64,000 nucleotides of DNA from Squalus acanthias (lineage: Eukaryota). The position numbers and the translations under genes were made by a program. Positions within the stretch are counted from its first letter, which is position 1; every line of letters begins with the position of its first letter. Of this stretch, positions 2,980-44,041 are shown one piece after another. The notes under the pieces were generated by a model. The model searched no databases and was not told where the DNA came from. It saw nothing but the letters and a program-made list of their open reading frames with translations. Location: the NCBI GenBank assembly GCA_030390025.1, contig CM059431.1, positions 117,120,001 through 117,184,000 on the forward strand, given 5' to 3'.

Positions 2980-3960
2980 TCACTGTTGATAACACTCAAG
3001 GTATCTGACTAGTGCACTTTTTATGGTCATGACCTCCTCTGATTTGTATTCAACTGATTTGGTTATATAGTATAACATTTTATTGGTGCAGAAATTCCGA
3101 TCCCTACGGGTGTGTACGCGCTGTATACTGACCCATAGGGACATCGGAAATGCCGGTTTCAGCCATGCACTGCACATGCGCTGGAAACCGGCATTTCTGA
3201 TCTGTCAAGAAAGCTCTTGACAGATCCTCCGGCTGCCCGAGAGAAGGGCCTCTGCGGGCGGAGAGTTCTGCTTTTTGGAGACCCTCCACCCGCAGAAAAC
3301 ACTTACAATTCTTGTGCCTGGTAAAAGCAAGCGTAAGGCCGGGTTTTACCAGGATAAGAGTTGAAAAAAGTTTTTTTTTAAATTTCCACTGATTTATCAT
3401 TTAAAAATACTTTAAAGAAAGGTAAGTTTATTTTTAGCCCCGTTAAAAACTTTAATTATTTTTTTCAAAAAAGAAAATTTTTGTTTAAAATCCTTAATTT
3501 ATTGTAATTTAAAGTCATTTTAAAAATGTGATTTAAAAAAAATATTTAAAGTTTTACTATGTTTTGGGGGTGATCTCCATTCATATATTTGACAGGCCTT
3601 CCTGTCAAATGTATGAAGGGAGATTCCCTTCTCTGATTGGCTCCCCATGGCCCACGTGATCCCAAGGACGCTGTGAACTGCCTGCTCCTCTGGGATACGT
3701 GGGCCCTGCGCACCGGCAGTTTGGAGAGGCCCAGCAGCGGAACTCTGCGTCTCCCGGGAGTCCTCCGGTCTTGGCGCAGATTTTTCCAGATCGCAGCCCT
3801 CCGCCCACGGGAGGCCTGCGATCGGAATATCTGGGCCATTGGCTTTGTTGATTCCTACTCCACATTGGCTGAACATATTGATCATTGGGTATAATAAGAC
3901 CCCTAGGTCTCTCTCAACTTTATCCTTTGCTATTTGAACACCATTCATGTGTTACGTGTG
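2980..3960 (-). mobile_element. Old CR1 RT fragment split by a MITE
   Basis: ERDLGVLL..SQC..INKAN (3838-3948) continues as NKMLYYITKSVEYKSEEVM (2980-3084) on the other side of the insertion. Confidence 0.75.
3085..3837 (+). mobile_element. Harbinger-type non-autonomous element, family A
   Basis: TIRs GGTGCAGAAATTCCGATC / GATCGGAATATCTGGGCC with 3-bp TSD ATT. Homologous to 14174-14915 and 27629-28392. Confidence 0.85.
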
Positions 3961-5271: not shown

Positions 5272-8200
5272 TGTAAAGTTTCCAAAATTTGCAGATCCCC
5301 AAAAATCTAAGCAAAAGGGACTTTGGAACTACCTCAGAGTGATAAAAATGCATTTGGGCCTAACATAAGAAATTTAAGACCAAAACCAAGCTTTGGCATT
5401 TTAAAAGGACATATCTGAAATTCAAGCCCCAGCAAACATTAACATTTAGACAATAGGCCCTGGGAGAAGGCCGCCCCACCAAAACACAGGAACCAGTAAA
5501 ACCTATCACAGAACCCATTAAAGAGACGCATAAAGATAGGAGTGCTAGGCCCAGCAAGAAACCCAAAACATGAGGACAATGCAAACTCCGATTAAACAAC
5601 AGATCAACAGGACGCAAGCCATTTGACACTCAGTAAAATCATTACTGTTGACGAGGTCTTACAATGACCAGGATTTGATTTGGTTCTGACAAGGCCACTT
5701 CAATTTAGCATAATTGAAGGCCCATCAAGCAGTTACAACAGTTCAGTAAGAAGAGAGTTCAGGACAATTTAACACCAAGTTAAACCCATCAAAACTTAAC
5801 AAGCCCGCAAAACCAAGACAATGGAATGAACAGGCCTCAACTGAAACCTCAGAAACATGGCTGCAGGGTGACAATGCCTGGGAATTAAACATACCAGGTT
5901 ATTTAACGATCAGGAAGGACAGGCAGGAAGGAAGGGGAGGTGGGGTGGCTATGTTAATAAAGGAAGGAATCACTGTAATACAGAGTAATGATATTGGGTC
6001 AAAAAATCATGATAATGAAACAGTTTTAGTGGAGATAAGGAATAATAAGGGGGAAAAAACACTAGTGGGCGTAGTCTATAGGCCTCCGAACAGTTGCAAC
6101 TCTGTTGGACGGAGTATCAATCAGGAAATAGTTGAGGCATGTAATAAGGGAACATCTATAATTATGGGGGATTTTAACTATCATATTAATTGGACAAATC
6201 AAATGGGGCAGGGCTGCCTTGAGGATGAGTTCATTGAGTGTATTAGGGATGGGTTTCTTGAGCAGTATGTAACTGAACCGACCAGGGGGCAAGCAACCTT
6301 AGATCTGGTCCTGTGTAACGAGACAGGATTAATTAAAAATGTCCTAGTAAAGGATCCCCTTGGAATGAGTGACCATAACATGGTTGAATTCCATATTCAA
6401 TTAGAGGGTGAGAAGGTTGGATCTCAAACAAGCGTGCTAAGCTTGAATAAAGGAGACTATGAAGGTATGCGAGCGGAATTGAGTAGAGTGGATTGGGAAA
6501 ATAGATTAAAGGGTAAGACGACACATGATCAGTGGTGTACATTCAAGGAGTTATTTTACAACTTCCAAAAAATATATATTCCACTGAAAAGAAAAGGGTG
6601 TAAAAGAAAGGACAGTCATCCGTGGCTAAGTAAAGAAATTAAGGATAGTATTCGACTAAAAACAAGGGCATATAAGGTAGCGAAATCTAGTGGGAGGACA
6701 GAGGATTGGGAAAAATTTAAAAGGCAGCAAAAAATAACAAAAAGATTGATTAAGAAAGGGAAGATAGATTATGAAAGTAAATTAGCAAAAAATATAAAAA
6801 CAGATAGTAAGAGTTTTTATAGTTATATAAAAAGAAAAAGGGTGGCTAAAGTAAATGTTGGTCCCTTAGAGGATGAGACCGGGAAATTAATGGTGGGAAA
6901 TATGGAGATGGCAAAAACACTGAATGAATAATTTGTATCAGTCTTTACAGTAGAGGACACTAAGAATATCCCAACACTGGACAAACAGGGGGCTATAGGG
7001 GGAGAGGAGCTAAACACAATCAAAATCACTAAGGAAGTGGTACTCGGTAGAATAATGGGACTCAAGGCGGATAAATCACCTGGACCTGATGGCTTACATC
7101 CTAGAGTCTTGAAGGAAGTGGCGGTAGGGATTGTAGATGCATTGGTAATAATTTTTCAAAACTCCCTGGATTCCGCTAAGGTCCCGGCAGACTGGAAAAC
7201 TGCTAATGTAACACCCTTATTTAAAAAGGGCAGTAGACAGAAGGCTGGTAACTATAGACCGGTTAGCCTAACATCTGTGGTAGGTGAAATTTTGGAGTCC
7301 ATTATTAAGGAAACAGTAACAGGACATTTGGATAATCATAATTTAATAGGACAAAGTCAGCATGGTTTTACGAAGGGGAAGTCATGTTTGACAAATTTGC
7401 TGGAGTTCTTTGAGGAAGTAACATATAGAGTGGATAAAGGGGAACCAGTGGACGTAGTGTATTTAGACTTCCAAAAGGCATTTGACAAGGTGCCACACAA
7501 AAGATTATTGCTTAAGGTAAAAAATCACGGGATTGGGGGTAATATTCTGGCATGGATAGAGGATTGGCTATCTAACAGAAAGCAAAGAGTTGGGATAAAT
7601 GGTTCATTCTCAGACTGGCAATCAGTAACTAGTGGTGTTCCACAGGGGTCAGTGCTGGGTCCCCAACTCTTTACAATCTATATTAACGATTTGGAGGAAG
7701 GGACCAAGCGTAACATATCAAAATTTGCAGATGATACAAAGATGGGAGGGAAAGTAGTGAGTGAGGAGGACATAAAAAACCTGCAAGGGGACATAGACAG
7801 GCTAAGTAAGTGGGCAGAGATTTGGCAGATGGAATACAACACTGGAAAGTGTGAGGTGATGCACTTTGGCAGGAAAAATCCTAGAGCAATTTATTATCTT
7901 AATGGCAAGAAACTGGAAAGTACTGAAGTGCAAAGGGATCTGGGGGTCCTGGTGCACGAAACTCAAAAGGTTAGTATGCAGGTGCAGCAAGTGATTAAGA
8001 AGGCAAATGGAATGTTGGCTTTCATTGCTAGGGGGATAGAATATAAAAATAGGGAGGTATTGCTTCAGTTGTACAAGGTATTGGTGAGACCGCACCTGGA
8101 ATACTGCATACAGTTTTGGTGTCCTTACTTAAGGAAAGACATCCTTGCTCTCGAGGCAGTGCAAAAAAGGTTCACTCGGTTAATCCCGGGGATGAGGGGG

Positions 8201-9364
8201 TGGTCATATGAGGAGAGGTTGGGTAGATTGGGACTCTACTCATTGGAGTTCAGAAGAATGAGAGGCGATCTTATTGAAACATATAAGATTGTGAAGGGGT
8301 TGGATCGGGTGGATGCGGGGAGGATGTTCCCGATGACGGGTGAGACTAGAACTAGGGGACATAGTCTTAGAATAAGGGGCTGTTCTTTCAAAACTGAGAT
8401 GAGGAGGAACTACTTCACTCAGAGGGTGGTAGGTCCATGGAATATGCTGCCACAAAAAGCTGTAGAAGCTACATCATTAAATAAATTTAAAACAGAAATA
8501 GACAGTTTCCTAGAAGTAAAGGGCATTAAGGGTTACGGGGAGCGGGCAGGAATTTGGACATGAGTCTAGGTTCGGATCCGGTCATGGCCCTGTGGGTAGT
8601 GGAGCGGGCCCAGGGACCGTGTAGCCTGATTCTGCTCCTATTTCGTGTGTGCAATTCTGTTAGATGCAGGAGATGGTTCTGTGATAGATAGTAGATTGGC
8701 GGTTAGGATCAGATCAGCCATGATCTTATTGAATGGCGGAGCAGGCTCGATGGGCCGATTGGCCTACTCCTGCTCCTATTTCTTATGTTCTTATGTTCTT
8801 ATTAACACAAAAACATTTTAGTAAGGGGTTTTGGGCGCGAAAAGGACAAAGGGGCTAAACAAGTATAATTGGGGGCCTAAGCCCCCAAGACTCTCTCTCT
8901 CTCTGGACTCTCTGACAGCGCTCACACAGCTCTCTCTCGGCTCTGTTCCAGAAGCAGCACGTTCCAGCAAGACACTCGACGACCAGACCACCATCGCAAT
9001 CAACTTACCTGGCTGGATTTCGCACTGTTAAAACCTCTGTTTGGTGAGCATTATCCCTGATCTCCTGAAACCAAAACCTAGCTAGATAGTGGGATTTTTG
9101 GGAGGGATAAGGGTTTTTGTATATTGTCATTCTCCCTCGCCTGTACCGTGTGTTCCCCAACCTGTTTAAGTGTTAAGTGTGTTTTAAGTTTGTTACCTTT
9201 TTCTTTTAATAAAAGTCAAAATTCTTTCATTGGAACCTGTTGTCTACTGCATCTTTATTCACAACCCCTAAATAAGTCCAAGGTCTGAACCAGGGGCGTG
9301 GGAGCGATTCGAACCGCTCACTGAGTCAGGGGTAAGGCTGACCCCTACCACACCACCCCCTACA
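5272..9364 (+). mobile_element. Solo LTR (about 1.14 kb) interrupted by a CR1
   Basis: TGTA...TACA ends, 4-bp TSD CAAA, TATA-like GTATAA near 8863 and AATAAA near 9208. Confidence 0.8.
5850..8802 (+). mobile_element. 5'-truncated young CR1 LINE (ORF2 APE+RT with one premature stop at 6929-6931)
   Basis: ORFs 5945..6931 and 7037..8563 are nearly identical to 40493..43444. FADD motif and (TTCTTATG)n tail. Confidence 0.95.
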
Positions 9365-30178: not shown

Positions 30179-31971
30179 TGTAAAAAATTGTGTTTTTCTA
30201 GGGGACTTAAAAACAAGTTCCAGGTTGAATTGTACAGGTACTGTAGAGTTTCGCAATTATCGCGATTCTAATAATATGAGAGAAGCAGGTTCAATTGAAC
30301 ATTTTTATTGAACGGAATGCTGTCTTGAAAATAAAGGGTACAGAAGCCTGTAAAATGGCCGCCGCGCATCGTGGCAGAAGTTTTACATGAGACACAGCGG
30401 GCAGACAAGATGGCGTCGAATATTCATTCAGTATGAGATCATACCTGGTACAAATTGAAAAGGCAGGATACAACCCGTTTGCATTTTGGACAATAGCAAT
30501 GATATAAGTGCTTGAATCGTTTCATACGCACAGTAAGAATCATTCAACTGGGCCATCGAAAGCCCATCCAGACACATCAATACACAAATACCCCCCCGGC
30601 TCAACAATGAGAGAGACATTGGCGGGTGATTAAGCCAGTATTCGGGGGGCCCCAAAACCAGTCGAGGAGACGATTCATACACATCCTGGCTGGCTCAACA
30701 ATGAAGAAGGCATTAACGGATAGTTGGCCAGTTTCAGGTGATACCGAAACCCGTTAAGAAGATAATCGCCCCATGCTGGGAGTTTTGGGCGCCAAAATCA
30801 CACAAAGGATAACATTTAGATTTGAGCGGGAGATAAGGCCGACAAAACAGTATAACTATAGAGGACAAATGTTCATCGGGAGTGAGTTTTGAAACAGACA
30901 CAGACACAGTTACGAGTAGGAGATGAAGCAGTTACAGTGACGAGTTATGGTCAGTTACGGAGAAAAGAGGAATCGGTCTCTTGGCTCTTTTTCGCTTCTT
31001 CGCTCTCTTGTTCCTTCAGCGGGTCTGTGCTGGTTGGTTATTCGAGTGTTGGGTGGAGTTCAATCAGAACGAGCCACCTCGACACGGCAGGCAGCAGGGT
31101 ACACCATCCCGATCGTCGGTAAACGGTGTCCGGACCCATCAGGGCAACACAGCGGTGTGTTCCCGAGCGAGGCCCGAGTGACGAGAAGAAAGACGAGAAG
31201 AAAGACGAGAAGAAATTCCACGTGCTGCCACGGTCAGTAAACCCCGACCGCGCCCGAAGATAAACGGCAGAGTCCACCAGTTCGAATTCTACAGACTACT
31301 TCATGACCCGGTTTGAATTCCACAAACTACTTCATGACATCAGGGAGTCTGGCTTACCCTCCGGCTCTTTGAGCGGGTAGCCCGAGCCATCCGCGATGAA
31401 CTTTACCAGGGCCGTCTCAAGTGGACCCATTCGCGGCAGCGAGAGTAAACAAGTCGGGGGCAGAAACCCTTACAGCCACGTGACAGCCAGGCGCTGCAGC
31501 GAAACGAGCTGAGAGCCTCATTTTAAATTTCCGAAGTGAGCCGAGTGGTGAGCATGTTTTCCGATCCTACAAATCCAGACGTAGTTTAAGTATATTAAGG
31601 GAGGGTGGTTTCTAAGGTTAATGTATAATGTGTTCCCCCTTTTACGATGTGTCGTGTGTTCCCCATTTCCATAGACCAAGTTTAATGAACGTGTGCAAAC
31701 TGGTACTCTCTTTGATCTGCGCCTATGACATGTATTTCATGATTTTAGACGCCATGCAATAAAGACATTCATTTCGTACTATTCAACCAGGTCTATTCGA
31801 GTCTTTTCTCTGCATTACTGCTCCTTGCATCTAAGTCCAGGTGTCAGAACCGTAAGGGCGAGTGGGTCGAACCACTCACAGGTGCTTATTGCAAAAGTCT
31901 GGCCGGAGACCAGAGCCAGCAATAGTGTAGGCAACGAAAGCCTCACCTCGCACCAGTCCGTGACCCTTACA
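30179..31971 (+). mobile_element. Solo LTR-like element (1.8 kb)
   Basis: TGTAA...TTACA ends, TATA-like motif near 30850, AATAAA at 31759, YY1-like AAAATGGC and internal tandem repeats. The U5 motif is shared with 9274-9364. No matching TSD is seen. Confidence 0.7.
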
Positions 31972-32631
31972 GTAAGCTCGTACATTATTAACTGTTTAAT
32001 TCACAGAAACAGCACAAGTTGTTTTCCAAGAGATATTGTCTGCAATTCACAGGATGATGGAGTCTGAGCATCTCCAGTCTCAAGCATTTCTTAGGATGTG
32101 TCAACATGATTCTCTGGGGGAGTATTGAATTCAGGTGATAGAGTAAAACTGCCAATATCTGATCAGCTGCCCGTTATACATGTCAACTGATTTTCATTTC
32201 CATTGAAGCCATGGTGAACAATTATTAGGCACCTTTACACTTTCAAATAGATGCTTACTAAAATAACTTTCTGATGTAGCATGCATGTTCGAGTTTAAGT
32301 TGTGTATAACTCTATCAATTACATACCTTACATAAAGCAACTGGAAGTTTAGTGAAGTTTGAAGCTTAGCTCAGGGACAAGCAGAAAAGCACAACTGCAT
32401 ACTGGTGGGTTCAGCCTGAGAGAGCAGCCAGGAACGGGGCAGAATTAAAGGCTTGGGCTTTTTCCAGTGTGGGCCAAATATTTTGTCTTGCCAATGTTAA
32501 GCTAGAGAAAGCTCTGCCTCATCTACAACAGATTTACAGTCCGATACAGATAAAATGATGGGCCCCAAAATTTCAATGAATTGGTAGGGTGAAAACCAGA
32601 TGTATCGGGGGAGGGAGTTGTAATTTAGTAA

Positions 32632-35641: not shown

Positions 35642-37474
35642 TGTGTCCCAGTGGACTTGGATCCAGGTGAGGAAAAAGATGGCTGACTTGAAGAAAACTG
35701 CTAAGCTAAGGCTACTGAACAACTTTGAATGCTAAGTGCCTGCTCCTAGTATAGTTGACACAAAGTATTCCTCACAACTTGTAACTCATATTCTACCGCT
35801 GCATCCTAATCATTCATACAAGCTTATCCTCTACATGTAAAATATTGCCCACTGAAAGCATGGCCATGTTGCAGCCCAACATAAATATAAACAGCAACGT
35901 AGAACAGAAACTGCTGTTGGATCGATATCTTCGAGGCTGCATGTAAAAAATTCTTCTAGCTACACATTGCATATTCTATCTGTCTGTCTCTCTCCCTATT
36001 ATTTTTAATAGATAACACTGTAGGGCCTGGTACTCAGTCCTCCCACTGCTATGTCATGCGTCATCCAGTTAATTTTTTCTTCTGACATGAAGGTGAATTC
36101 GATTTTTAACAAAATCTGTTTCTTAACTCACTTTGTTTTAATTATTTGCCTTTATGTTTGCTGCCAACTTGAGCCTTTTTCCAGTGGTGGGACCTCCTCC
36201 AGTGACCCCGCTCAGCTGCTGGCATCTCTCAACATCTCCCTGAGGTGTTTCCCTATCTTTCCAGCCTTAGCTTCTGCACTGAACAATTCCTCACCCTTAG
36301 TGATTTTAATCTCTATCTCAATTCCCATTGCCTTTATTTCTCCAAAATCACTGCCCTCCTGTCCTCTCCAAGTCATTCCCTCCATAGAAACTCTCCCAAA
36401 CATATTAGCGGCCACGCCTCTAACATTGCCATCTCTCATGGTATCTTTCCTCCCATGGTCTCAATCACTGAAAAGACCATCTCTGACCACTTCTTTGTAA
36501 CCCTTACCATCCACGTCCCCTACTCTTCTTTAACCCCATTCCCCCCCACCTCCCCCCCCCCACCATGTTACTTATTACTGCACACACTCCCAGCTATCTA
36601 GTCTTTGGTTCTCCATTTACTACGATACAACTGCAGCTATTGATTTGCTCAACTATTCTCTCATCGCCACTTTTGATGCAAAACCTTCACTGTCTCCCAT
36701 TCAAGGGCTGCAAACTTGAGGATATCTGATGTGCAATTGGCTTAGCCATCCATTACCAGATCTGACTCAATCAGATTAAACTCAACTGGACCTTGCTCTC
36801 CTCTGCCAAAGTATCCACTACTCTTAGAAAGTAAAGGTAATCCCAGGCTTCTTCTCTCGACTACCAACTGCCTCCTAAAACCTTCTCCCCTGTCCTTTTC
36901 TCCCTCATTTCTGATAAGTATGAGGAACTCATGGATTTCTTAATCACCATGAAAGAGGACCTCCATGCAGCTGCCTCTGCTGCTTCTCCCGTCCCTTTTC
37001 CCACCTGAACCAGAACCCCTCTTTCTCTCTCTGTAGTTTCTCTCTATCTCTTCCCATGCTCGCTCCAGTCTCATCCATGAGACCTACTTCCTGTTCCTTT
37101 GACCCCATTTCCACTAAACTCCTGACCACTTCCAGGTTTCCACGTCAACTGACATTGTAAATAGTTCCCTCGCCCCAGGAACTGCCTACCTGTCTTTCAA
37201 AACTACTATCATTAGCCCCCTCCTCAAAAAAACTTATCCTTGACCCCATTAACTACAGCCCATCACCAACTTCCTTTTACTCTCTAAATGCATTATTTCT
37301 CCTCATCCTCCTTGACCGTTGTGCAGCCTTGAACAGCCAATCACATTACCTTGCTCCAATGCCTCTTCCCTATTATTCAGCTTGGTCGGGCTGCCCTCAC
37401 TTGATTCTATTCTTATCTATTTGATGTGAGAAGTCGCACAACACCAGGTTATAGTCCAACAGCTTTATTTGAAA

Positions 37475-37511
37475 TCACAAGCTTTCGGAGCGCTGCTCCT
37501 TCGTCAGGTGA
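37475..37511 (-). ncRNA. Minimal type I hammerhead ribozyme motif
   Basis: UCAC-CUGACGA-A-GGAGC(AGC)GCUCC-GAAA-GCUU-GUGA, giving the core, stem II and a 4-bp stem I. Confidence 0.75.
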
Positions 37512-37516
37512 AGACT

Positions 37517-37553
37517 TGACCTGACGAAGGAGCAATGCTCCGAAAGCTTGTGA
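37517..37553 (+). ncRNA. Minimal hammerhead ribozyme motif (stem I mismatch)
   Basis: UGAC-CUGACGA-A-GGAGC(AAU)GCUCC-GAAA-GCUU-GUGA. Confidence 0.65.
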
Positions 37554-38274
37554 TTTCAAATAAAGCTGTTGGACTATAACCTGGTGTTGTGCGACTTTTC
37601 ACATTTGTCCACCCCAGTCCAACAGCGACATCTCCACATCATATCTATTTGATGATAGCCAGAGCTTTTCTACCAATGACTTCTTTACCCACCCCCACAC
37701 CATCATCTCAGGAGTCCCCCAAGAATCCATCCTTGCTAAATGCTGCTCCTTGGCAACATCATTGGTAGACATGAGGTCAGCTTTCACATGTATGATGTGA
37801 CCTCTTCACCACTTTTGATTTTTCTCCTCCCGCTTCGAACTGCCTATATGCCATTAGACTGCTTGTATGGTATCAAGTCTTGAATGAGCTGTAATTTCCT
37901 CCAGTTAAGCACTTAGATCACAGCCATCATCTTTGGACCTTGCCACAAATGTTGTGTGTGTCTGTGTCCTATCCTGCACCAAACCCTGCTCGTCCATTAC
38001 CATTGTCCTTGCAAACCTACATTGGCTCCTGTTACCCCATGCCTCAAATTGAAAATGTCCATCCTTGTGTTTAAATCCCTCCATGGCTTCATCCTCTCAT
38101 TATCTCTGTAAACTTCTCCTGTCCAATAACCCCTATCCCCTCCCACCCTCTCCCGAACTTTCCACTCTCTAAATATGGACTCTTGTGAATCCCCTCACCC
38201 TTCATTCCACATTTGGCAGCCATGCCTTCAGCTGCTTAGCCCCTGTACTTTGGAATTCCCTCCCTAAACCCATA

Positions 38275-39166: not shown

Positions 39167-39497
39167 TTCCACTTTTCCACCTCCCTTTCCTCCTTTATTA
39201 TCCTTCTTAAAGCCTACCTCTTTGGACCAAGCTTTGGTCACACATCCTAATCTTTCTTTCTTTGGCTTGGTGTCAGTTTTTCTTTATGTCTCTGAGGTGT
39301 CTTGGATGTTTTTCAAGAGTAAGGGAGTAGGCGTAGGAGTAGGAGTAGTATCATACCAATGACACCTGGTGAGTATTTCTCTTTTTTTTGATACAAAACT
39401 TCAATTTTATTGTTTCTCGGGTATCTGTGGTGTAGCAGAGACTGCTGGCATAAATTAACTGAAGGGTAAATAATACATTTTTAATTAATTACATAGA

Positions 39498-40454
39498 ATG
39501 GGAGAGCAGGTGATGTGTTACTGCTGCAATATGTGGGAGCTGGTGGACACCATTGATGTTCACGGTGAACACATTTGCAGTAAGTGTTGGCTGCTCGAGG
39601 AACTCCGGCTCCGTGTTGATGAGCTGGAGTCCGAGCTTCAAACACTGCGACACATCAGGGAGGGGGAGAGTTACCTGGACTCCGTGTTTCAGGAGGTAGT
39701 CACACCAATTAGAGTAACTAATTCAGAAGTAGCCCGTGGTCAGGGACAGGAAGGTGTGACTACGAGTGAGGCAGGTACAGGGATCCAGGAGGTAGTGTTG
39801 GAGGAGCCGCAGCCCTTGCTCTTGTCCAACAGGTTCGAGGCTCTTACTCCCTGTGTGGATAGGAGCGGGGACTGCAGGGAGGATGAGCAACCTGGCCACA
39901 GCACCGTGGTAAGGGGGGCCATTCAAGTGGGGGGAGTAAAAAGAAATGTTGTAGTGGTAGGGGATAGTATCATTAGGGGGATAGATAGGGTTCTTTGCAG
40001 CCAAGAGCGAGAGTCCCGAAGGCTGTGTTGCCTGCCCGGTGCCAGGGTTAAGGACATCTCCTCTGGGCTGGAGAGAAACTTGGAGTGGGAGGGGGAGGAT
40101 CCAGTTGTCGTGGTCCATGTTGGTACCAATGACATAGATAGGACAAGGAAAGAGGTTCTGCTGAGGGAGTTTGAGCAGCTAGGGGCCAAATTAAAAAGCA
40201 GAACCTCGAGGGTAATAATCTCTGGATTACTACCTGAGCCACGAGCAAATTTGGCTAGGGTAAATAAAATCAGGGAGTTGAATGCGTGGCTCAAAGACTG
40301 GTGTGGGAAAAATGGGTTTTGCTTCTTGGGACACTGGCACCAGTACTGGGGCAGGAGAGAGCTGTTCCGTTGGGACGGACTTCACTTGGCCAGTGCTGGG
40401 ACTAGTGTCCTGGCGAATCGAATAACTAGGGCTGTGGAGAGGGCTTTAAACTAA
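39498..40454 (+). CDS. CR1 ORF1p: zinc finger/leucine zipper plus SGNH esterase
   Basis: CxxC..CxxC, a heptad LEELRLRVDELESEL, and the motifs VVGDSII, HVGTND and DGLHL. Confidence 0.93.
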   Translation: MGEQVMCYCCNMWELVDTIDVHGEHICSKCWLLEELRLRVDELESELQTLRHIREGESYLDSVFQEVVTPIRVTNSEVARGQGQEGVTTSEAGTGIQEVVLEEPQPLLLSNRFEALTPCVDRSGDCREDEQPGHSTVVRGAIQVGGVKRNVVVVGDSIIRGIDRVLCSQERESRRLCCLPGARVKDISSGLERNLEWEGEDPVVVVHVGTNDIDRTRKEVLLREFEQLGAKLKSRTSRVIISGLLPEPRANLARVNKIRELNAWLKDWCGKNGFCFLGHWHQYWGRRELFRWDGLHLASAGTSVLANRITRAVERALN

Positions 40455-40492
40455 TTAGTGGGGGGGAGGTTTCAAGAGAGCAAAAAATAAAA

Positions 40493-43444
40493 ATGACAAC
40501 AGAGAGGGTCATAGACATAGGTAGCAGTAGGGGAATCACAAATCAGAGCGTGGCAGGAAGGGACAGAGTGTGTGGAGTAAAAGGTAAACTGGTAAAAAGT
40601 GAAAAAGCAGGAACTAAGTGCCACAAAGCATATTTGAAAGTTCTCTATCTGAATGCACGTAGCATTCGTAACAAAATAGACGAGTTAATGGCACAAATAA
40701 CTACATATGGTTATGATATTGTGGCCATTACAGAAACATGGCTGCAGGGTGACAATGCCTGGGAATTAAACATACCAGGTTATTTAACGATCAGGAAGGA
40801 CAGGCAGGAAGGAAGGGGAGGTGGGGTGGCTATGTTAATAAAGGAAGGAATCACTGTAATACAGAGTAATGATATTGGGTCAAAAAATCATGATAATGAA
40901 ACAGTTTGGGTGGAGATAAGGAATAATAAGGGGAAAAAAACATTAGTGGGCGTAGTCTATAGGCCTCCGAACAGTTGCAACTCTATTGGACGGAGTATCA
41001 ATCAGGAAATAGTTGAGGCATGTAATAAGGGAACATCTATAATTATGGGGGATTTTAACTATCATATTAATTGGACAAATCAAATGGGGCAGGGCTGCCT
41101 TGAGGATGAGTTCATTGAGTGTATTAGGGATGGGTTTCTTGAGCAGTATGTAACTGAACCGACCAGGGGGCAAGCAACCTTAGATCTGGTCCTGTGTAAC
41201 GAGACAGGATTAATTAAAAATGTCCTAGTAAAGGATCCCCTTGGAATGAGTGACCATAACATGGTTGAATTCCATATTCAATTAGAGGGTGAGAAGGTTG
41301 GATCTCAAACAAGCGTGCTAAGCTTGAATAAAGGAGACTATGAAGGTATGCGAGCGGAATTGAGTAGAGTGGATTGGGAAAATAGATTAAAGGGTAAGAC
41401 GACACATGATCAGTGGTGTACATTCAAGGAGTTATTTTACAACTTCCAAAAAATATATATTCCACTGAAAAGAAAAGGGTGTAAAAGAAAGGACAGTCAT
41501 CCGTGGCTAAGTAAAGAAATTAAGGATAGTATTCGACTAAAAACAAGGGCATATAAGGTAGCGAAATCTAGTGGGAGGACAGAGGATTGGGAAAACTTTA
41601 AAAGGCAGCAAAAAATAACAAAAAGATTGATTAAGAAAGGGAAGATAGATTATGAAAGTAAATTAGCAAAAAATATAAAAACAGATAGTAAGAGTTTTTA
41701 TAGTTATATAAAAAGAAAAAGGGTGGCTAAAGTAAATGTTGGTCCCTTAGAGGATGAGACCGGGAAATTAATGGTGGGAAATATGGAGATGGCAAAAACA
41801 CTGAATGAATATTTTGTATCAGTCTTTACAGTAGAGGACACTAAGAATATCCCAACACTGGACAAACAGGGGGCTATAGGGGGAGAGGAGCTAAACACGA
41901 TCAAAATCACTAAGGAAGTGGTACTCGGTAAAATAATGGGACTCAAGGCGGATAAATCACCTGGACCTGATGGCTTACATCCTAGAGTCTTGAAGGAAGT
42001 GGCGGTAGGGATTGTAGATGCATTGGTAATAATTTTTCAAAACTCCCTGGATTCCGCTAAGGTCCCGGCAGACTGGAAAACTGCTAATGTAACACCCTTA
42101 TTTAAAAAGGGCAGTAGACAGAAGGCTGGTAACTATAGACCGGTTAGCCTAACATCTGTGGTAGGTAAAATTTTGGAGTCCATTATTAAGGAAACAGTAA
42201 CAGGACATTTGGATAATCATAATTTAATAGGACAAAGTCAGCATGGTTTTACGAAGGGGAAGTCATGTTTGACAAATTTGCTGGAGTTCTTTGAGGAAGT
42301 AACATATAGAGTGGATAAAGGGGAACCAGTGGACGTAGTGTATTTAGACTTCCAAAAGGCATTTGACAAGGTGCCACACAAAAGATTATTGCTTAAGGTA
42401 AAAAATCACGGGATTGGGGGTAATATTCTGGCATGGATAGAGGATTGGCTATCTAACAGAAAGCAAAGAGTTGGGATAAATGGTTCATTCTCAGACTGGC
42501 AATCAGTAACTAGTGGTGTTCCACAGGGGTCAGTGCTGGGTCCCCAACTCTTCACAATCTATATTAACGATTTGGAGGAAGGGACCAAGTGTAACATATC
42601 AAAATTTGCAGATGATACAAAGATGGGAGGGAAAGTAGTGAGTGAGGAGGACATAAAAAACCTGCAAGGGGACATAGACAGGCTAAGTAAGTGGGCAGAG
42701 ATTTGGCAGATGGAATACAACACTGGAAAGTGTGAGGTGATGCACTTTGGCAGGAAAAATCCTAGAGCAATTTATTATCTTAATGGCAAGAAACTGGAGA
42801 GTACTGAAGTGCAAAGGGATCTGGGGGTCCTGGTGCACGAAACTCAAAAGGTTAGTATGCAGGTGCAGCAAGTGATTAAGAAGGCAAATGGAATGTTGGC
42901 TTTCATTGCTAGGGGGATAGAATATAAAAATAGGGAGGTATTGCTTCAGTTGTACAAGGTATTGGTGAGACCGCACCTGGAATACTGCATACAGTTTTGG
43001 TGTCCTTACTTAAGGAAAGACATCCTTGCTCTCGAGGCAGTGCAAAAAAGGTTCACTCGGTTAATCCCGGGGATGAGGGGGTGGTCATATGAGGAGAGGT
43101 TGGGTAGATTGGGACTCTACTCATTGGAGTTCAGAAGAATGAGAGGCGATCTTATTGAAACATATAAGATTGTGAAGGGGTTGGATCGGGTGGATGCGGG
43201 GAGGATGTTCCCGATGACGGGTGAGACGAGAACTAGGGGACATAGTCTTAGAATAAGGGGCTGCTCTTTCAAAACTGAGATGAGGAGGAACTACTTCACT
43301 CAGAGGGTGGTAGGTCCATGGAATATGCTGCCACAAAAAGCTGTAGAAGCTACAACATTAATTAAATTTAAAACAGAAATAGACAGTTTCCTAGAAGTAA
43401 AGGGCATTAAGGGTTACGGGGAGCGGGCAGGAATTTGGACATGA
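40493..43444 (+). CDS. CR1 ORF2p: APE endonuclease plus reverse transcriptase (983 aa)
   Basis: LNARS, ITETW, YRPP, GDFN, SDH; then YRPVSL, LDFQKAFDKV, GVPQGSVLGP and FADD. Confidence 0.97.
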   Translation: MTTERVIDIGSSRGITNQSVAGRDRVCGVKGKLVKSEKAGTKCHKAYLKVLYLNARSIRNKIDELMAQITTYGYDIVAITETWLQGDNAWELNIPGYLTIRKDRQEGRGGGVAMLIKEGITVIQSNDIGSKNHDNETVWVEIRNNKGKKTLVGVVYRPPNSCNSIGRSINQEIVEACNKGTSIIMGDFNYHINWTNQMGQGCLEDEFIECIRDGFLEQYVTEPTRGQATLDLVLCNETGLIKNVLVKDPLGMSDHNMVEFHIQLEGEKVGSQTSVLSLNKGDYEGMRAELSRVDWENRLKGKTTHDQWCTFKELFYNFQKIYIPLKRKGCKRKDSHPWLSKEIKDSIRLKTRAYKVAKSSGRTEDWENFKRQQKITKRLIKKGKIDYESKLAKNIKTDSKSFYSYIKRKRVAKVNVGPLEDETGKLMVGNMEMAKTLNEYFVSVFTVEDTKNIPTLDKQGAIGGEELNTIKITKEVVLGKIMGLKADKSPGPDGLHPRVLKEVAVGIVDALVIIFQNSLDSAKVPADWKTANVTPLFKKGSRQKAGNYRPVSLTSVVGKILESIIKETVTGHLDNHNLIGQSQHGFTKGKSCLTNLLEFFEEVTYRVDKGEPVDVVYLDFQKAFDKVPHKRLLLKVKNHGIGGNILAWIEDWLSNRKQRVGINGSFSDWQSVTSGVPQGSVLGPQLFTIYINDLEEGTKCNISKFADDTKMGGKVVSEEDIKNLQGDIDRLSKWAEIWQMEYNTGKCEVMHFGRKNPRAIYYLNGKKLESTEVQRDLGVLVHETQKVSMQVQQVIKKANGMLAFIARGIEYKNREVLLQLYKVLVRPHLEYCIQFWCPYLRKDILALEAVQKRFTRLIPGMRGWSYEERLGRLGLYSLEFRRMRGDLIETYKIVKGLDRVDAGRMFPMTGETRTRGHSLRIRGCSFKTEMRRNYFTQRVVGPWNMLPQKAVEATTLIKFKTEIDSFLEVKGIKGYGERAGIWT

Positions 43445-44041
43445 GTCTAGGTTCGGATCGGTCATGGCCCTGTGGGTAGTGGAGCGGGCCCAGGGACTGT
43501 GTAGCCTGATTCTGCTCCTATTTCGTGTGTGCAATTCTGTTAGATGCAGGAGATGGTTCTGTGATAGATAGTAGATTGGCGATTAGGATCAGATCAGCCA
43601 TGATCTTATTGAATGGCGGAGCAGGCTCGAGGGGCCGATTGGCCTACTCCTGCTCCTATTTCTTATGTTCTTATGTTCTTATGACACCGTATCTTCATCA
43701 GTTTTGTTGTCTATTCTCAGCCTCATCCCCAATCCACACTAAGTTCTCTTTGCCAGTACCTGTCACTACAGTGGGAACAAGTAAATTATTACATCATGCT
43801 ACCTCCACTCTCTCCCACCTCAAATGAAAGAAGAAAACAAATCAAAAACCGGACAAGCAGAAGAGAACGAAAACAAAGTGGTAGAGAGGGGGAGACCAAC
43901 TTAAAGAGAGAGGAAAAAAACAGAAGACAGCAGAGATAAAGTTGCAACCAAAACAACTAGACTAAGGCAACAAATGTAGGTCATGTAGACTTTCCAGGAG
44001 TAATACTATAGGAGGCCCACTAATAATATATTAAAATCATT

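Follow-up and report, generated by a model that had tools for sequence, protein, structure and literature searches.

Two solo LTRs in a repeat-rich shark window

The window, by which we mean the whole stretch of 64,000 nucleotides of Squalus acanthias DNA that was analysed, is repeat-rich animal DNA made up mostly of CR1-type LINEs, whose 3′ tail resembles that of the shark HER1 LINE. Embedded in it are two solo LTRs with the following features.

5272..9364, plus strand: solo LTR 1, about 1040 bp without its insert, target site duplication (TSD) CAAA/CAAA
30238..30241: left TSD of LTR 2, GTAC, three of its four letters the same as in the right copy
30242..31971, plus strand: solo LTR 2, 1730 bp, beginning TGTAGAGTTTC and terminating TACA
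30782, plus strand: island GTTTTGGGCGC, common to both LTRs, upstream of the TATA-like box
30851..30855, plus strand: TATA-like box in the putative U3/R region, function putative
31546..31555, plus strand: splice-donor-like island TGGTGAGCAT, with the same letters at 9042 in LTR 1, function putative
31758..31763 (LTR 2) and 9208-9213 (LTR 1), plus strand: AATAAA poly(A) signal
31972..31975: right TSD of LTR 2, GTAA

Both elements have the termini TGTA...TACA and 4-bp TSDs, with one mismatch in that of LTR 2, and their first 11 bases agree at 10 positions. LTR 1 is split by a CR1-type LINE at about 5750-8802. The sequence after 31975 holds no primer-binding site (PBS) directly 3′ of LTR 2, and none was seen for either LTR family, both window copies being solo. 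The two LTRs are not joined by blastn below E 0.5. Three local alignments between them reach scores of 43, 58 and 46, where the best shuffles reach 32, 37 and 36, and a collinear series of islands runs through both: GTTTTGGGCGC, the TATA-like box, TGGTGAGCAT, CGTGTGTTCCCCA, AATAAA and the motif described below.

AATAAA lies about 70 bases upstream of the motif start, which places the motif in U5: positions 31832-31971 are the U5 end of a solo LTR. Judging from the 4-bp TSD and the splice-donor-like island, the element is likely an endogenous retrovirus (ERV) rather than a Gypsy element; the TSD length fits group I ERVs in the table of PMC11905727, yet fits other elements too.

Several further observations concern the LTRs and their surroundings. 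The splice-donor-like 10-mer (9042-9051 and 31546-31555) sits in R, 165-210 bases 5′ of AATAAA in both LTRs, and may have a part in splicing or in the control of the 5′ poly(A) site. The 13-nt island CGTGTGTTCCCCA is identical at 9147-9159 and 31653-31665, with a near repeat at 31629; secondary peaks of contig depth occur at 31624-31655 and 31720-31751. As delimited by the TATA-like box and AATAAA, the putative R of LTR 2 spans about 900 bases (30880-31790 in the window), against about 340 in LTR 1, and contains tandem repeats, namely a 12-mer in three copies at 31180-31215 and a 31-mer in two copies at 31280-31338, the latter carrying a sense-strand GTTCGAAT word. The LINE inside LTR 1 belongs to a young family: it shares 98-100% identity with a longer copy at 40430-43682, which has an open ORF2 of 1004 aa and an ORF1 upstream at 39489-40454. 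Elsewhere, a 90-bp inverted repeat with a 1-nt spacer and 96% complementarity lies at 37424-37604, and 140-nt windows at 3133, 28053 and 55773 fold far more strongly than the motif (z -7.4 to -7.9, 20 shuffles each); these are probably palindromic or inverted-repeat elements.

Anatomy of the U5 fold

The end of LTR 2 was described in a preliminary account as an expanded, multibranch version of a U5 RNA motif, of which LTR 1 carries a shorter copy. We refer to the LTR 1 version as copy 1 and to the LTR 2 version as copy 2.

31832..31851, plus strand: conserved 5′ blocks TAAGTCCA (31832-39) and GAACC (31847-51)
31852..31858 / 31964..31970, plus strand: closing stem GTAAGGG/CCCTTAC, pair probability 0.99, its 3′ strand at the LTR terminus 31971
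31860..31877, plus strand: conserved hairpin GAGTG-GGTCGAAC-CACTC, its loop containing TCGAAC
31881..31885 / 31950..31954, plus strand: stem GGTGC/GCACC closing the added domain, pair probability 0.99 on both strands
31887..31924, plus strand: added arm A, with TATTGC (31887-92)/GCAATA (31919-24), an internal loop and an apical hairpin
31898-31914, plus strand: apical hairpin of arm A, CTGG 31899-902/CCAG 31910-13, loop CCGGAGA
31929..31943, plus strand: added arm B, AGGC/GCCT, 7-nt loop AACGAAA
9273..9364, plus strand: short version of the motif (copy 1), in which a single variable hairpin replaces the added domain
9292-96/9357-61 plus 9298-301/9353-56, plus strand: copy 1 closing stem, different letters in an equivalent place; predicted pair probability 0.96-0.99 over the closing stems of the two copies

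A coordinate check found every segment named in the preliminary description where it had been placed, and, the enclosing stem apart, the stems it named in copy 2 reach mean pair probabilities between 0.95 and 1.00 when the plus strand is folded. Its statement that most bases fit a helix holds, in that 74 of the 119 bases of 31852-31970 are paired in the predicted fold. The shared blocks, closing stem and hairpin are found in both copies, as expected from the claimed match of frame with a larger variable arm, and support the view that 31832-31971 is the fold of 9273-9364 in enlarged form. The enclosing stem had been given as AGGTG/CACCT; this pairing is possible, but the model prefers the register GGTGC/GCACC and pairs CAC at 31944-46 with GTG at 31925-27. 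One contig from run X17 keeps GCACC while the first letter of CACCT is changed. Position 31927 is A in nearly all other copies, so the short GTG/CAC helix is lost there and the AGGTG/CACCT register may be open to them.

The core common to both copies comprises TAAGTCCA, six to seven variable bases, GAACC, the closing stem and the hairpin GAGYG-NNTCGAAC-CRCTC. Between the copies this hairpin shows one two-sided change, T-A to C-G, and in copy 2 a sixth pair, G31865-C31872, closes its stem. AAGTCC is predicted to be unpaired in both copies (unpaired probability 0.78-0.99), as is the TCGAA of the conserved hairpin loop on the plus strand. The TCGAAC of this loop is the complement of tRNA G53-A58 and includes the palindrome TCGA. 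The loop of arm B, predicted to be fully unpaired, contains the Arg codon CGA, then A, then a purine.

Within the window, the pattern TAAGTCC-N6-14-GAACC occurs twice against 0.09 expected, and none of 100 shuffles reaches two, a contrast that is post hoc, as the pattern was derived from the two copies themselves. Among the 12 TCGAAC sites on both strands of the window, the two that are flanked by a stem of at least four pairs are the two motif copies. As a side observation, the 5′ strand of the copy 1 closing stem (9292-9296, partner 9357-9361) has an alternative partner at 9265-9269, upstream of TAAGTCCA; this alternative pairing would be a possible switch, with a probability of 0.20 on the minus strand and at most 0.15 on the plus strand.

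Folding stability tells little about the motif. The comparison with shuffled sequences that had been proposed for copy 2 gives z -3.1 on the plus strand, so that the fold is indeed more stable than its shuffles, but such stability is unremarkable: 17 of 228 sampled 140-nt windows attain z ≤ -3 on the plus strand. On the minus strand copy 2 reaches z = -3.9, and the values for copy 1 are -1.55 and -0.99. Stability therefore proves little, and the evidence for the fold is its conservation. Rfam returned no match at the gathering threshold in the window, with the best local hits at E 5.3-9.2, and twister, hammerhead and HDV-like folds were rejected as unsupported when judged by eye against consensus structures.

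Conservation across contigs

The stretch is present in sequencing runs from seven coded organisms (20 runs), in one of them only as a small share, and four of the 20 runs, from four coded organisms (X5, X11, X17 and X20), were aligned to 31560-32010. LTR 2 is multi-copy and interspersed, with 648, 49, 14 and 184 contigs aligned in the four runs and many letter variants among them. In all four, the deepest bin lies within 31848-31879; in X11 its depth is 136,452, whereas no upstream bin exceeds 11,578, depth being no measure of copy number. That the hairpin core is deepest in every run suggests that it is common to more LTR families than the remainder of the stretch. RNA-type runs with the stretch are absent from the record, which says nothing about expression.

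Listed substitutions are sparser in the motif than upstream. Among 40 of 54 listed rows (38 places), 34 of 272 positions upstream carry a substitution, whereas the motif has 4 in its 140 positions (Fisher p 0.001), a contrast that would vanish if all of the other 14 rows fell in the motif (p 1.0). Three of the four motif places (31845, 31917 and 31928) are unpaired, and the fourth, 31927, belongs to a marginal three-pair helix. None of these four thus falls in the six main stems, again among 40 of the 54 rows; an accumulation of pair-breaking changes at a neutral rate, which the preliminary description had named as the outcome that would speak against the fold, is not what the listed changes show. 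Cover of the last 40 bases comes mostly from one run, contigs too divergent to align are uncounted, and LTR-end bins without cover in three runs were not counted as absence. Contig cover thins before the LTR terminus, and no loose end lies there among 24 of the 93 listed.

Parts of the added domain vary. Among the same 24 of 93 loose ends, some subfamilies have other sequence in place of the arm A linker and outer stem, with the outer stem replaced in X17 and X20, and the apical hairpin is retained in X5, X11 and X17, X20 being mixed. One X17 contig keeps the stem and loop of arm B, the final loop letter being G, and the pairs at the base of this arm are different ones.

Searches outside these runs retrieved the following. 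The viral_contigs scans gave one locus, inside a phage ORF, and three loci in a second scan; metagenome_contigs gave at least 120 of an estimated 230 or so loci, and genome_contigs three. No homologs were found in these database scans: none of 121 loci has a stem of at least four pairs around the loop. Of the other six, L124 has a hairpin that is nearly forced by the search pattern and comes without the AAGTCC block, and L125-127 are haloarchaeal. A sigma-70/terminator scan was empty and is irrelevant here.

A proposed docking site for the tRNA primer

We propose that the motif is a U5 fold beside the primer site whose exposed loops pair with the host tRNA primer and so set up reverse transcription, a reading to which we give a probability of about 0.55. 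In the genomic RNA, U5 would be confined to the 5′ end, where it would adjoin the PBS. The closing stem holds the last bases of the LTR, so reverse transcriptase would presumably have to open it in its first steps; the inverted-repeat stem of avian retroviruses is a comparable stem at the end of U5.

A PBS covering tRNA bases 59-76 leaves bases 49-58 of the tRNA free. If the PBS took up bases 59-76, the T arm would melt, and the loop TCGAAC(C) could then pair with the next bases, 52/53-58. The conserved letters of the loop cover tRNA positions 52-58, and the two letters of the loop in which copy 1 and copy 2 disagree would face positions 59-60, already bound by the PBS. The length assumed for this PBS is 18 nt (PMC12789967). 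Arm B could add a second contact. Its CGAA(A/G), ending in A in LTR 2 and in G in one X17 contig, is the complement of Y32-U33-U34-C35-G36 in tRNA-Arg(UCG), whose anticodon loop must, by a general rule, read Y-U-U-C-G; it would thereby add an anticodon contact like that of the A-rich loop of HIV-1. For the GGAG loop of arm A, nucleocapsid binding or packaging seems the more likely role. A58 and G37 of tRNAs are usually methylated and would not pair, so the proposed helices would be shortened accordingly.

The frame is kept between LTRs that blastn does not join, the letters of the closing stem differ, and the hairpin carries a two-sided change, all of which supports the docking reading. Published probes point the same way for the loop: its sequence TCGAACC, the complement of the general tRNA T loop, also forms the end of an anti-tRNA probe (PMC10791582). 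The human Arg-UCU-4 probe from the same source contains both AAGTCCAG and GAACC (PMC10791582), where the chance of a given 7-mer within 76 nt is 0.004. This match is to Arg(UCU) and not to the Arg(UCG) isoacceptor, and the two blocks stand in reverse order relative to a plain antisense copy, so that it serves as a lead only. For arm B, the rough chance that either of two 7-nt loops would hold CGAA(A/G) is about 1/80, a five-letter match recognised post hoc, and the variable arm of copy 1 has no CGAA loop. UUCG occurs both in the T loop and in the anticodon loop of Arg(UCG), so the core hairpin could serve either.

More tentatively, we speculate that the motif is a modular tRNA-gripping U5 RNA, in which a fixed core would grip the melted T arm of any primer and a swappable codon-loop domain, here for Arg(UCG), would specify which; this extension we regard as possible but improbable. 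If true, it would amount to a T-box-like primer selector built by added arms, and primer choice could be read from U5 and compared across families.

Extended contacts of this kind have precedents. An interaction of U5 with the T-psi-C loop was proposed for avian sarcoma virus (PMC3185550). The motif resembles the avian sarcoma/leukosis viruses in its stem at the very end of U5 by the primer site and in a U5 stretch complementary to the T loop; here, by contrast, the complement sits in a hairpin loop, the fold around it is multibranched, measures 70-120 nt and has a domain that can be exchanged, and the host, judging by its LINE content, is a cartilaginous fish. In HIV-1 and HIV-2, contacts were described between an A-rich apical U5 loop and the anticodon, together with a stretch directed at the T arm (PAS), and results on their importance conflict (PMC3185550); the pairing of primer and loop in HIV-1 was shown in vitro (PMC3185550). 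The likeness lies in an apical U5 loop set against the anticodon loop and a second U5 stretch set against the T arm. Unlike in HIV, the candidate loop CGAA(A/G) would address Arg(UCG), and it lies on an added arm that is absent from LTR 1.

Among sharks, endogenous retroviruses with LTRs are known from the elephant shark as CmiERV (Han 2015, PMC4422223). In the parts of that source at hand, the motif is absent from two CmiERV U5 ends, TCGAACC and AAGTCCA do not occur in the supplement text, where line breaks may hide words, and TAAGTCC and TCGAAC occur once each, in internal sequence (PMC4422223). As far as these passages go, the motif is not general to shark ERVs. Separately, CmiERV scaffold 324 has a T-loop-like word, GGTTCGA, in the sense orientation a few bases before an apparent primer site, which is the opposite orientation to that seen here (PMC4422223).

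Alternative explanations

Foremost among the alternatives, and in our view unlikely, is that the fold serves mainly as a signal for dimerisation and packaging, its loop palindrome kissing that of a second genome and its GGAG arms binding nucleocapsid. The conserved loop is palindromic in both copies (TTCGAA in copy 1, TCGA in copy 2), predicted self-duplexes amount to -5.1 and -3.7 kcal/mol for these loops and -7.1 for the loop of arm A, and a place in U5, which genomic RNA has at its 5′ end alone, would suit packaging. The dimerisation initiation site (DIS) of HIV-1 has a 6-nt palindromic loop, and nucleocapsid binds a GGAG loop (PMC7599994). The likeness to the HIV-1 DIS and psi thus consists of a palindromic loop and a GGAG apical loop; the differences are that the structures here lie in U5, 5′ of the PBS, that the palindrome of copy 2 measures 4 nt, and that the GGAG is in a 7-nt loop and not a tetraloop. 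Known DIS loops lie mostly downstream of the PBS. Conservation of the loop is, moreover, lopsided in a way that dimerisation would not predict, the 3′ AC(C) being kept while the 5′ palindrome partner changes, and in several loose ends (24 of 93 listed) a C of the CCGG of arm A is T, which removes the arm A palindrome.

Whether the plus strand is the working strand bears on the next alternative, and the strand tests are mixed: they lean to plus and do not decide. The polymerase II signals, TATA and AATAAA, are on the plus strand, where the unpaired bases number 18 A to 6 U and 8 A to 3 U. A-rich unpaired bases are usual in structured RNA. A hairpin with G.U pairs that forms only on the plus strand exposes AAGTCC in copy 2 (probability 0.94), copy 1 having no clear equivalent, and in one X11 loose end a U.G pair of this hairpin becomes C-G. 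A minus-only GGTTC/GGACT hairpin was discarded as an effect of cutting the sequence at 31832, its probability being at most 0.19 once flanks are included.

If the minus strand is the one that works, strong-stop DNA or an antisense RNA could act as a tRNA mimic, or GGTTCGANNC could be a polymerase III B box of the Helenus kind; we consider this quite unlikely. The mimic in its specific form, given the same low standing, would stack the closing stem on a GTTCGA T-loop hairpin and add a YTTCG anticodon-like loop. The minus folds are indeed lower in energy (-56.1 vs -49.9 and -37.2 vs -33.9), and the fold is also obtained with DNA parameters. On the minus strand 6 of 69 predicted pairs are G.U, compared with 0 of 61 on the plus strand, and only there does the G-C pair that closes the conserved loop in copy 2 correspond to a G.U in copy 1, the plus strand of which has A.C. 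Both copies also match G53-T54-T55-C56-G57-A58-N-Y-C. Yet ARAGORN predicts no tRNA gene in the window and Rfam no tRNA at E ≤ 10, the stem register is one position off a true T arm, no clean A box is seen by eye, and the minus loops are U-rich. The stack from T loop to LTR end measures about 15 positions in one copy and 19 in the other, which argues against an RNase P ruler.

The comparison with Helenus fares no better. In Helenus/TRIMp3 (Kojima 2024, PMC10886601), animal members have 4-bp TSDs and keep promoter motifs rather than tRNA structure. The elements are alike in a tRNA-like word within the LTR and in their 4-bp TSDs. They differ in that the LTRs here are far longer, at 1.0-1.7 kb against at most 323 bp in Helenus (PMC10886601), in their polymerase II signals, in a B-box-like word that is antisense only, and in a strong conserved fold. 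A short TRIM or Helenus element (below 1 kb, with A and B boxes) was accordingly rejected as an identity for LTR 2, the LTR alone being 1730 bp with an antisense B-box-like word only and no clean A box by eye.

A more improbable proposal is that the role of the fold is to pause reverse transcriptase or to regulate the poly(A) site, which lies some 70 bases upstream; the letters of its loops would then matter little, and the added domain would be a tolerated insertion, constrained only in having to remain folded. Such tolerance would agree with a variable domain that is wholly different between LTR 1 and LTR 2 and with the replacement of the outer stem of arm A in the loose ends noted above, and the conserved upstream splice-donor-like island suggests that poly(A) control matters in LTR 2. 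However, the predicted fold excludes AATAAA, and AAGTCC, GAACC and TCGAAC are kept in sequence, which shape alone would not need. Chance pairing as the source of the added stems, the LTR end being GC-rich, is very improbable: the 17 of 228 windows that fold equally well would allow it, but changes in the motif are few among the 40 of 54 listed rows, with none in the main stems, and in the X17 contig the base of arm B is still closed, though by different letters.

Meaning for retroelement biology

We return to primer docking as the preferred reading. Among the titles and abstract openings listed from the open literature, none describes this U5 motif, most subscription journals and Repbase lying outside the scope of the search. 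The enlarged domain and its candidate codon loop are new here. Most likely the fold varies on U5 primer-docking structures that are already known, and the finding gives no indication of a new RNA class.

A few viruses of birds and primates are known to make extended contacts between U5 and primer, and debate over these contacts continues (PMC3185550). Shark LTR families that have diverged deeply and yet retain one U5 fold would offer a natural experiment, showing which of these contacts are preserved in evolution. Further, the combination of a conserved core with an exchangeable domain would provide a marker for classifying solo LTRs.
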